A stretch of 64,000 bases of DNA from contig OX597815.1 in assembly GCA_951406725.2 (NCBI GenBank), positions 174,406,001-174,470,000 on the forward strand. The letters run 5' to 3'. The first letter of the stretch is position 1, and the number at the start of each line of letters is the position of its first letter. Below the pieces are notes generated by a model, which searched no databases, had not been told where the DNA came from, and was given only the letters and a program-made list of their open reading frames with translations. Origin of the DNA: Octopus vulgaris (Eukaryota). This document shows positions 35,101-36,850 of this stretch, one piece after another. The position numbers and the translations under genes were made by a program.

Positions 35101-36850
35101 ATTGTTAAAAAGTTGAAGGAGTTAACTTATGGATGACTTTTATTTTCAGGTTCCAATCGTACCAGTTATCTTTTCGTCATTTCAACCATTTTATAGCAAA
35201 AGCGAAAAAAAATTGGAGCCTGGTAATTATACTTTGAGTTTTTTCAAAATTGAAATGATTTTTAGCTTAGAGTTGCTTCATAATTATTGAGCATTCTTTC
35301 ATAGGCTTGTCATAAAAAATCCTTGTTTCATTTGTGTAAACTACTTAAATTTTATATTTGCTCAGCATTTTACTGGTTAACAAAGATTTGCTGCTAGTAG
35401 TAATACAAATAAATGTCATAAGTAGGCATGAATTTGAAATTTAGTTTGTATTGTCAGATTTAGCCATTTCACTTCACTTATCTCATTTATGCTCTTGAAA
35501 ATGTCTGACATTTTCATACAAACTATAGGCTTTCAGCTCATTTGGAGAAAGCAGCAAGAAAATCTTCTAGTATGGTTATATAACTGATGTCATGTCAAAT
35601 CTGGCTACAATGGAACTTAATCTTCTCCCGAAAGACAATGATAAGAAAGTAATAAAATATACTATCAAGTATTAGAGTTTACTTCAACTATGATAACAAA
35701 TAGCTGATGCAATAGTTTATATATATTATATAATGGACTTTTTGTATACAATGAACTACAACTCATCAAAAAAAAAATGACCAAACCTGCATGAACAGTA
35801 CTTAGAATATACACAGGAAGTGAACAGTAAATAAGTCTTTTAAAAAAAATGGAGTAAGGGGCATCAAGTGTACTGTAGGCGGATTTTAGGAAGCATGGAG
35901 GTTTTGAAGAATATTTGTATTAATTTCTTAATTAGTGAGTTTTGTTGCATTGTAATATGAGAGAAAATAAAAAGCTTCAATAGATGTTTGAAGTTTAACT
36001 GGAATGGGGTTTTTTTCTTTTTTTTTTTTTTTATAATCAGAATATATTCTAGCTTTTGTTTTCTTCATAAAAGAAAATTAGATGCACTCTAACCTTTGAC
36101 AGCATAAATATTTTAGCTAATGTGGGATCTATCCTTTTTCTTTTATTTGTACTTCTGTTTCTTATCCCCCCCTCTCTCTCTCTCTCTCTCTCTCTAATCT
36201 AGTAACATGGCAGAGAATACTGGTTGTCTAATATAGTTTGAAATAGTTCATGCTTTTTAAATGCACTGTTTTAAATATTCACTTCATTTTGAAAATATAT
36301 GGGCAAATTCAATGTGTTATTTTCATTCTGCTCTCTTTTTATTTTCTTCCTTTTGTTAACTATAGGTAAATTTATCATTACTATCCTACCTCCGACCCCA
36401 ACAACTGGTCTGAAATCAACAGATGTCAATGATTTATGTGAAAAAATCCAAATTCAGATGGAGAATGTCTATTACAAAACTTCCCATGAAGTTTCACCTA
36501 TTGTTTTCGGCAGTTCAAATACTTCAAAGGAGAAACGACCCTTATCAGTGTCACCAAGTTCACTGACTGATTCTGGAGGATTAGGAGTCTTAGAAAGGAT
36601 TGAAGAAGAGTCTGCTGAGACTAATGTAGAAACAATCAGTCCAGATGTTAGCACAAAGGAAGAACAGAAACTACATGCTGACAGAATTAGAGAAGCAACA
36701 GTTGCTGATGCACATGTTACCATGGGGAAAATAAATAAAAGTAAACAAACTGAAAATACAGAAGAATTAGCTCAGAAAATTGTGGCAAAGACAGTTAAAG
36801 AAGCACAGGAACTTGTAAAAGCAAATTCTTTCAAAGAAGCAGAAAAATGA
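14099..36850 (+). CDS. AGPAT1: 1-acyl-sn-glycerol-3-phosphate acyltransferase (LPAAT alpha/beta-like), spliced CDS join(14099..14235,28649..28824,28937..29032,35150..35222,36366..36850); 5' coding exon not identified
   Basis: Five exons with canonical AG/GT boundaries and compatible phases. They encode acyltransferase motifs I-IV (NHQSSLD, GTIFIDR, FPEGTR, VPIVPV) plus PFKKG. Assignment to AGPAT1 versus AGPAT2 is not resolvable; it is probably a co-ortholog. Confidence 0.93.
14800..15950 (+). mobile_element. hAT (Charlie/SPIN/GTF2IRD2-like) transposase relic
   Basis: Eroded motifs [24 protein letters not shown] and YFYELRNE in broken frames; boundaries approximate. Confidence 0.5.
18228..18598 (+). 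mobile_element. 3' end of a second CR1-type LINE with (TAAC)n tail
   Basis: Encodes [14 protein letters not shown]...LRGHSEKL...[13 protein letters not shown]; tail at 18573-18598. Confidence 0.8.
19639..19853. mobile_element. piggyBac-like MITE (~215 bp)
   Basis: CCCTTTAGCATTTA ... TAAATCCTAAAGGG|TTAA. Confidence 0.7.
20501..20843 (+). mobile_element. tRNA-derived SINE with 9-bp TSD
   Basis: A box TGGCTCAGTGG, B box GTTCGATTCC, TSD AATATGTCA at 20492-20500 and 20844-20852; related heads at ~1349, ~6530, ~27841 and ~31812. Confidence 0.85.
26701..26924. mobile_element. Penelope-like insertion with internal inversion and 14-bp TSD
   Basis: Direct repeat ATTATATAAATATT at 26687-26700 and 26925-26938; ~35-bp inverted arms at 26700-26735 and 26834-26868; related sequence at 42070-42215. 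Confidence 0.55.
27841..28105 (+). mobile_element. tRNA-derived SINE
   Basis: Same head as 20501; the 3' part matches 1475-1550. Confidence 0.75.
28140..28503 (+). mobile_element. Abundant retroposon 3' module ending in GACGTTAAAC(GAT)n
   Basis: GGAGTGGTTGGCGTTAGGAAGGGCATCCAGCTGTAGAAAC...CCATGCTAGCATGGAAA; other copies at ~11210-11612, ~17150-17350 (-), ~29630-29795, ~33953-34120 (-) and ~53300-53470. Confidence 0.8.
28649..28824 (+). CDS. AGPAT1: AGPAT exon with motif II
   Basis: Acceptor tattctag|GT and donor CAG|gtacat; 176 nt; encodes [59 protein letters not shown]. Confidence 0.93.
28937..29032 (+). CDS. AGPAT1: AGPAT exon with motif III
   Basis: Acceptor tttctcag|ATT and donor CAG|gtatgc; 96 nt; encodes [32 protein letters not shown]. 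Confidence 0.94.
29924..30310 (+). mobile_element. Non-autonomous Helitron
   Basis: 5' TC, 3' GC-rich hairpin CCCGAGCAACGCCGGG followed by CTAG, inserted between A and T with no TSD; internal ~100-bp tandem duplication. Confidence 0.8.
30141..30777. repeat. Long near-perfect inverted repeat (palindrome)
   Basis: Arms ~30141-30447 and ~30463-30777 are reverse complements around a (TA)n spacer. Confidence 0.95.
30773..31228. repeat. Compound (TA)/(GA)/(GATA) microsatellite
   Basis: Directly visible low-complexity tract. Confidence 0.95.
31229..31620 (+). mobile_element. Second SINE family with internal (TA/TG)n and (GAGTAAAA)n tail
   Basis: GGCGCAGGAGTGGCTGTGTGGTAAG...GGTTCAGTCCC head; other copies at ~16196-16584, ~26015-26411, ~33840-34905 (split), ~48390-48766, ~54960-56605 (-, split by mariner) and ~56875-57250 (-). 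Confidence 0.85.
31812..32136 (+). mobile_element. tRNA-derived SINE, CpG-rich young copy
   Basis: A and B boxes (TGGCTTAGTGG, GTTCGATTCC); the body matches 6600-6820. Confidence 0.8.
32574..32766. mobile_element. piggyBac-like MITE, opposite orientation
   Basis: TTAA on both sides; CCCTTTGGTATTCAGATTAC start. Confidence 0.65.
34252..34810 (-). mobile_element. 3' end of a CR1-type LINE with (ATT)n tail, inserted in a SINE
   Basis: ORF 34303-34683: PYSERL...TRGHIYK...[14 protein letters not shown]. Confidence 0.85.
35150..35222 (+). CDS. AGPAT1: AGPAT exon with motif IV
   Basis: Acceptor tattttcag|GTT and donor G|gtaatt; 73 nt; encodes [24 protein letters not shown]. Confidence 0.92.
36366..36850 (+). 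CDS. AGPAT1: AGPAT last coding exon with long acidic/Ser-rich C-terminal extension
   Basis: Acceptor aactatag|[34 protein letters not shown] matches the AGPAT C-terminal fold; the frame stays open to TGA at 36848-36850. Confidence 0.88.

Follow-up and report, generated by a model that had tools for sequence, protein, structure and literature searches.

The window analyzed here, a stretch of 64,000 nucleotides from Octopus vulgaris, holds five coding exons of an enzyme of phosphatidic acid (PA) synthesis, an acyltransferase of the AGPAT1/2 type (LPAAT alpha/beta). We located the exons by motif scanning and tblastn; all five have canonical AG/GT ends, and their joined translation is identical at 321/321 positions to residues 64–384 of P0121, an AGPAT alpha-like protein of O. 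vulgaris/O. sinensis. Exon 1 was not found within the window. The exons, with the evidence for each, are as follows:

14099..14235, plus strand: AGPAT1/2 coding exon carrying NHQSSLD (catalytic motif I); splice ends, P0121 identity
28649..28824, plus strand: AGPAT1/2 coding exon, motif II region; splice ends, run contigs, P0121 identity
28937..29032, plus strand: AGPAT1/2 coding exon with FPEGTR (motif III); splice ends, run contigs, P0121 identity
35150..35222, plus strand: AGPAT1/2 coding exon, motif IV region; splice ends, run contigs, P0121 identity
36366..36850, plus strand: last coding exon, with the end of the acyltransferase domain and the whole C-terminal tail; TGA stop at 36848–36850

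The protein has the marks by which an AGPAT1/2 is recognized: a PF01553 acyltransferase domain in its core (Pfam E 1.9e-33), the NHQxxxD, FxxR and FPEGTR motifs, and a PlsC fold, the core structure matching PlsC 5KYM at E 8.7e-11. In contigs of 4/4 sequencing runs examined (4 studies; 4 runs compared of 23 listed, their RNA nature being a guess; none is recorded as RNA), the last four exons are joined at GT..AG introns, the intron 35222/36366 is spliced out, and 36365–36850 is covered with 0 differing letters. The first-pass annotation had placed a candidate PKA-anchoring (AKAP) helix at the AGPAT C terminus, and the placement is right: 36761–36817 on the plus strand encodes 19 residues, 356–374 of the spliced Octopus AGPAT1/2 gene, all in the last coding exon. 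That exon encodes four features that concern us:

36482..36847, plus strand: coleoid-type C-terminal tail, residues 263–384 (122 residues), net charge −5
36590..36613, plus strand: LERIEEES, candidate PP2A-B56 docking motif (LxxIxE; acidic P2/P7, Ser at P8), from conservation and consensus fit
36674..36718, plus strand: helix 1, a degenerate first repeat copy, its face altered in Octopus by L>H and V>R
36758..36844, plus strand: helix 2, predicted helix 355–383, with a candidate D/D-binding core L358–A370 at 36767–36805; it includes 36761–36817

How unusual is such a tail on such an enzyme? We took the best 120 of 883 homologs, of which 116 were new identifiers and 95 had a measurable C terminus; the number of residues after a fixed landmark has a median of 45 in these 95, as against 140–163 in the tailed sequences, and the sole long-C-terminus exception among the 95, P0126, seems to contain a second AGPAT domain. 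Among the sampled homologs, the tail-bearers are octopus, argonaut and cuttlefish-type sequences only, and none of the 24 animal homologs from outside the cephalopods that the tree includes has one. A tree of the enzyme core (31 rows, midpoint root, with Nautilus not sampled and the fragments P0251–P0253 excluded) puts the cephalopods on one branch with support 100/100, and that branch splits into octopods (Octopus, Argonauta) and P0002 with the Sepia cluster. One Sepia pharaonis gene model, P0240, has no tail and diverges mid-exon; its cluster has 8 members, of which the remaining 7 have the tail, and the absence from P0240 is likely a faulty gene model. A short alternative last exon resembling the C terminus of P0240 was sought, with no match in the window besides the known exon, and no downstream exon for the decapodiform DDS ending was found within the window. 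Searched against 1.84 billion representatives, a profile of the tail returned 3 proteins, each the tail itself, and no AKAP. Where fungal or other homologs have long tails, these contain neither of the stricter patterns discussed below (the 13-residue helix pattern and the strong form of LxxIxE).

By prediction, the tail is largely disordered, with AlphaFold2 pLDDT <50 at 275–301 and 304–319; it then forms a moderate helix at 318–349 and a confident one at 355–383 (block pLDDT 93 and 87). The last of these, helix 2, is predicted to be amphipathic (hydrophobic moment 0.44) and of AKAP length (14–18 residues), and, as it follows a low-confidence linker, it probably lies outside the core of the PlsC-like fold. 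Within it, the spacing L-A-x-x-I-V-x-x-T-V-x-x-A reported earlier is there in the translation of 36761–36817, and so is the deviation that was reported with it. That is, Thr366 breaks the strict 12-residue aliphatic AKAP consensus—a prediction filter more than a definition—in every copy, and helix 2 does not match that consensus because Thr stands at a core position. We wondered whether A-to-I editing might mend this by turning the Thr codon ACA into Ala, and found 0 differing letters in the exon in the main contig of 4/4 runs; there is no majority recoding, and, since contigs drop rare variants and 177 differences lie outside the listing, tissue-specific editing of the codon may still occur.

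The pattern by itself would persuade no one. When the 122-residue tail is shuffled, 21,600/100,000 shuffles match a loose 12-residue consensus that admits Thr, and 447/100,000 match a 13-residue class pattern built after the spacing given above. In 237 background proteins (69,117 residues), the 13-residue pattern occurs 3 times, each time in a hydrophobic segment at the N terminus, and a whole proteome would probably contain hundreds of such matches. The loose pattern matches so often by chance that the pattern alone is weak, and the signal rests on conservation. It had been said that a hydrophobic face varying among orthologs would sink the idea. In 10/10 aligned tailed sequences, the face reads L, A, I, V, T, V, A without change (7/7), and the polar face is variable. 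In five sequences, 7/7 face positions are invariant against 25/115 in the rest of the tail, 1/6 on the polar face and 4/40 at other A/V/I/L/M/F/T positions of the tail, with the caution that the sequences share ancestry and that we picked the positions once the pattern was known, so that p-values are descriptive. Between Octopus and P0003, identity is 10/13 in helix 2 and 4/18 and 2/14 in its flanks. Positions 373/374, a fifth turn, are hydrophobic in 10/10 aligned rows, and the residues preceding L358 are polar or small (N/Q/S/R, then T/A), which makes for a weak N-terminal turn. The feature is real, conserved and lineage-restricted. Such conservation appears to reflect selection for a specific binding face; it does not specify the partner.

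An amphipathic helix on a lipid-synthesis enzyme naturally raises the thought that it lies on lipid, sensing membranes or lipid droplets, and the hydrophobic moment of copy 2 (0.39–0.49) and the avidity that tandem copies could give would suit this. On the discrimination-factor scale for lipid helices, the bar stands at 0.68; 9/9 helices are below it (−0.78 to 0.41), net charge runs from 0 to −3, large and aromatic residues are few, and the exact identity of residues is kept where a lipid surface would not need it, all of which makes a lipid-binding role very unlikely.

The first-pass annotation overlooked that helix 2 is the second of a tandem pair, whose first copy has decayed in octopods. 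The copies lie 31 residues apart, and helix 1 is intact in the cuttlefish-type sequences (P0002, the P0003 cluster and P0251), where the two copies share 9/17 identities in P0003 and 10/17 in P0002, each equalled by 0/300 shuffles. In Octopus, the repeat is undetectable at the protein level (5/17 identities, reached by 299/300 shuffles); the DNA at 36674 matches that at 36767 in 25/45 bases, and in helix 1, two face positions are taken by His and Arg and the hydrophobic moment is 0.04. One charge on the helix face abolishes anchoring in OPA1 and smAKAP, as described in PMC12203939. In Argonauta (P0123), helix 1 is mostly deleted and helix 2 is kept, so the repeat unit would work singly; this loss also speaks against an obligatory hairpin of helix 1 with helix 2. 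The same history bears on the dullest explanation of all, a neutral tail extension with a chance motif match. Few independent lineages were sampled, loose patterns are frequent and P0240 has no tail, but a drifting tail would hardly keep invariant blocks amid variable linkers, or lose copy 1 in octopods and not copy 2, and we regard neutrality as scarcely credible.

What, then, does the conserved face bind? The spacing resembles that of helices that dock on the D/D domain of PKA regulatory subunits. In the register of AKAP-IS (sequence as printed in PMC2652104; its numbering agrees with Ile-12 in PMC3682517), L358/A359/I362/V363/A370 fall on L8/A9/I12/V13/A20, and a hand count gives 5/13 identities for Octopus and 6/13 for P0003. 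Bulky residues at AKAP-IS positions 9, 13 and 16 abolish RII binding according to PMC13025221; the residues that would map there (A359, V363 and T366) are non-bulky. RI-selective helices, as PMC12083921 describes them, start with F/Y-A at positions 1–2, and this start is missing here: in none of the copies is the Ala preceded by an aromatic. A D/D partner would more likely be RII-type or dual than RI-selective.

Could the pairing be modelled? A stand-in RII was taken from a metagenome scan of 76 loci, of which 27 (26 distinct) had an RII-type D/D domain; the 4/4 RII-type loci checked had PF02197 with cNMP domains, and the one used, L031, finds D/D structures of mammalian RII-alpha at E 9e-14. 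Two copies of this D/D co-folded with residues 350–381 scored 0.38 against 0.02 for the best of 3 controls (which are not stated to be amphipathic), with ≥92% of contacts shared between runs and a partner pLDDT of at least 66. The co-fold thus reaches its mark, if weakly, and such low passes are often wrong. The mark is reached by 51/78 solved and 2/108 mismatched pairs (39/65 and 2/126 for eukaryotes), and scores of 0.60 or less include only 5/78 solved pairs but all 4 passing mismatches (of 180). This calibration excludes peptides and disordered chains, no alignments were used, and the RII is an animal stand-in; like complexes have already been solved, so the pass may reflect complexes that the model had learned. 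Essentially, the co-fold weakly suggests D/D binding and moves the odds slightly.

Searches for relatives gave little. The profile search that had been proposed gave no support: with the tail and four full-length orthologs as queries, Pfam at E ≤10 listed neither an RII-binding family nor an AKAP one (HMMER filters drop most weak matches, above E 0.1). Of two PDB sequence searches, one gave 0 matches and the other a lone one, TAF8 at E 0.083, which was judged to be chance; no AKAP is among them. The ESM Atlas gave no usable feature match, its structure matches being generic helices with no AKAP link. These blanks are not the same as absence. There is a weak Pfam similarity, below the curated cut-off, to the L7/L12 dimerisation helix (E 0.0015–0.056). 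This similarity, together with the missing AKAP profile match, suits a helix that binds some non-D/D partner with a helix-binding groove, or one through which the enzyme associates with itself. Conservation of the face only, and duplication, would suit any ligand of the helix-in-groove kind, and the Thr (which no copy replaces, although A/V/S might be tolerated if RII binding were all that counted) and an invariant Gln371 suggest partner-specific contacts. It would then be a coincidence that the small residues fall on the positions critical for RII and that the co-fold passes at 0.38 versus 0.02, with all the caveats given above; we hold a partner of this kind to be rather unlikely and take it seriously. 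A D/D protein other than PKA (DPY-30-like or RIID2, such as ROPN1L/SP17) is a different matter, for the fold is common to those proteins, D/D domains outside PKA bind helices of similar kind, the co-fold pass cannot tell family members apart, and four turns suffice for DPY-30 in PMC12203939, which is the length of the invariant core here; the enzyme would then be a D/D-interacting protein (DDIP) and not an AKAP. The same source describes DDIPs as mostly ciliary or nuclear, but the octopus enzyme is by inference in the endoplasmic reticulum (ER), and the fifth hydrophobic turn (373/374) is kept, so this reading strikes us as distinctly improbable.

AKAP membership is defined by binding, and on the strength of its residues we term helix 2 an AKAP-like candidate and not an AKAP. 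Prediction in this field is humbling: of four talin fragments with predicted sites, PMC10990152 describes one that bound RII, via an unpredicted helix. With that in mind, we lean, by a modest measure, to a coleoid-specific AKAP-like helix that would dock on the D/D domain of PKA from an ER enzyme facing the cytosol.

The first-pass annotation also overlooked an LxxIxE motif, ~60 residues upstream of helix 2. The high-affinity B56-binding form is given in PMC10970375 as LxxIxE with an acidic or phosphorylatable P2, P7 and P8. LERIEEES takes in L299–E304 (L at P1, I at P4, E at P6), with E300, E305 and S306 at the accessory positions; it has the form [LMFI]xx[ILV]xE with acidic or phosphorylatable residues at P2 and P7–P9, with P9 not acidic. 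Its positions are invariant at 7/8 in the five sequences. A minimal LxxIxE is commonplace (36,471/100,000 tail shuffles); the strong form occurs in 192/100,000 tail shuffles and 0 times in the 69,117 background residues. The flanks have pLDDT <50, and 298–304 itself is drawn by AlphaFold2 as a low-confidence helix. Whether LERIEEES binds PP2A-B56 we would put, from its letters, at an even chance.

How might these pieces work together? PMC12749901 describes the C terminus of mammalian AGPAT2 as facing the cytosol, and by analogy we infer an ER location and cytosolic exposure for the octopus enzyme: its N-terminal hydrophobic helices (AlphaFold2) would hold it in the ER, the tail reaching into the cytosol, and the flexible linker would offer helix 2 to the D/D groove of a PKA R dimer. 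Helix 2 docking on that dimer would tether PKA to the cytosolic ER face; LxxIxE would recruit PP2A-B56 as the opposing phosphatase; and the two would form a local on/off module where PA is made. An effect on LPA-to-PA conversion or on neighboring proteins may follow. An RRxS/T site occurs nowhere in P0121, P0002 or P0003 and once in P0123, so it is not conserved; the enzyme is therefore not an obvious canonical PKA substrate, and its neighbors are at least as likely substrates. The fullest version, which is speculative and which we doubt even as we offer it, is that the coleoid ancestor made its PA enzyme into its own kinase–phosphatase scaffold at the ER, with two sites for PKA in decapodiforms and one in octopods plus one for PP2A-B56, and did so independently of vertebrate AKAPs.

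In the literature searched (most subscription papers are outside it), we found no description of an AGPAT as an AKAP or of the coleoid AGPAT tail. PMC12083921 and PMC12203939 trace most AKAPs to vertebrates and tie their expansion to nervous-system complexity. If our proposal is true, a coleoid-born AKAP would be an independent invention of PKA anchoring in the largest-brained invertebrate lineage, cAMP signalling would be coupled directly to the site of PA synthesis, and a housekeeping lipid enzyme would serve as its own signalling scaffold. The evolutionary series is already laid out: other sampled molluscs with no tail, cuttlefish-type sequences with two helices, Octopus with one intact and one broken, and Argonauta with one. 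Because nature supplies a negative control in the broken copy 1 of Octopus, a few peptides would suffice to test the claim.

The known systems are near enough to be instructive. The enzyme shares catalytic motifs and fold (PlsC fold, PF01553) with AGPAT1/2 elsewhere, but compared with those of 24 non-cephalopod animals, it is ~110 C-terminal residues longer. AKAP helices are described in PMC12083921 as amphipathic and 14–18 residues long, their aliphatic face conserved and their polar face variable. Helix 2 resembles the RII-anchoring ones (AKAP-IS, AKAP79, D-AKAP2) in length, in this partition of faces, in its 5–6/13 identities to AKAP-IS and in its small residues at 9, 13 and 16; it differs in having Thr at 16, a weak N-terminal turn and no profile-level homology. 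Dual-helix AKAPs (SKIP, AKAP220) also have more than one candidate anchoring helix per chain, as the cuttlefish-type sequences do, but these are of vertebrate origin according to PMC12083921, whereas here a membrane enzyme has gained its pair by tandem duplication, at a distance of 31 residues, with one helix left in octopods. AKAP95/AKAP8 (by insertion), ERM proteins and OPA1 are likewise old proteins with a lineage-restricted and then highly conserved helix in the account of PMC12203939; theirs are metazoan-wide, vertebrate or mammalian, whereas here the lineage is coleoid and the helix is part of a new tail at the terminus. For PKA and PP2A-B56delta on one scaffold, there is precedent in AKAP6/mAKAP (PMC13632692), a large dedicated scaffold, whereas here both candidate sites fall within ~80 residues of an enzyme tail. 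A precedent in metabolism is AKAP1–PKA inhibiting GPAT1 (PMC12062205), which is anchored PKA in the glycerolipid pathway one step upstream, at LPA synthesis; there, mammals use a separate mitochondrial anchor and GPAT1 has RRxS, whereas in coleoids, if we are right, the anchor sits on the glycerolipid enzyme itself.

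A sequence resembling a GT donor lies at 36851-36856, immediately 3' of the AGPAT1/2 stop codon, and transcript contigs from three of the four sequencing runs continue for 327-458 bases beyond 36850 with no listed match to the next bases of the window. These contigs suggest a 3' UTR intron beginning straight after the TGA; the exon downstream of this putative intron was not located. The repeats at 36960-37370 and 31300-31600 are interspersed, SINE-like and of very high copy, and they draw large contig depth from the sequencing runs. Frames at 8679-9830 (+), 34303-34764 (-), 38029-38415 (-) and 1907-2627 (+), all within or close to AGPAT1/2 introns, resemble remnants of LINE reverse transcriptases and of a Tc1/mariner-type transposase.

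The Sepia pharaonis AGPAT1_2 model P0240 has an unrelated short C-terminus in place of the tail carried by the seven other members of its cluster, reflecting either a faulty gene model or an alternative isoform, and the 420-residue record P0126, with two AGPAT domains apparently in tandem, is either a fusion or a merged gene model. Basidiomycete AGPAT/Slc1 homologs (P0014, P0021, P0022, P0032, P0046, P0052, P0053, P0055, P0056 and similar records) have long disordered tails of their own, ending in a common acidic-then-hydrophobic motif, TEEDEGMVLVGRP-like, an unrelated candidate C-terminal linear motif.

Within the coleoid tail, two short blocks stand out:

36590-36613, (+) strand: LERIEEES, near-invariant, a candidate PP2A-B56 docking motif
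36626-36643, residues 311-316: ET[IL]SP, a third conserved block, with E312, T313, S315 and P316 invariant

The first-pass annotation did not include the LERIEEES block. ET[IL]SP, which adjoins this LxxIxE motif, is possibly a proline-directed phosphosite.

And what of the threonine on the face of the predicted AKAP-like helix? Thr366 (36791-36793) is retained in all intact copies of the helix, and one might speculate that its phosphorylation would act as a switch for binding, by analogy with S66 of smAKAP.
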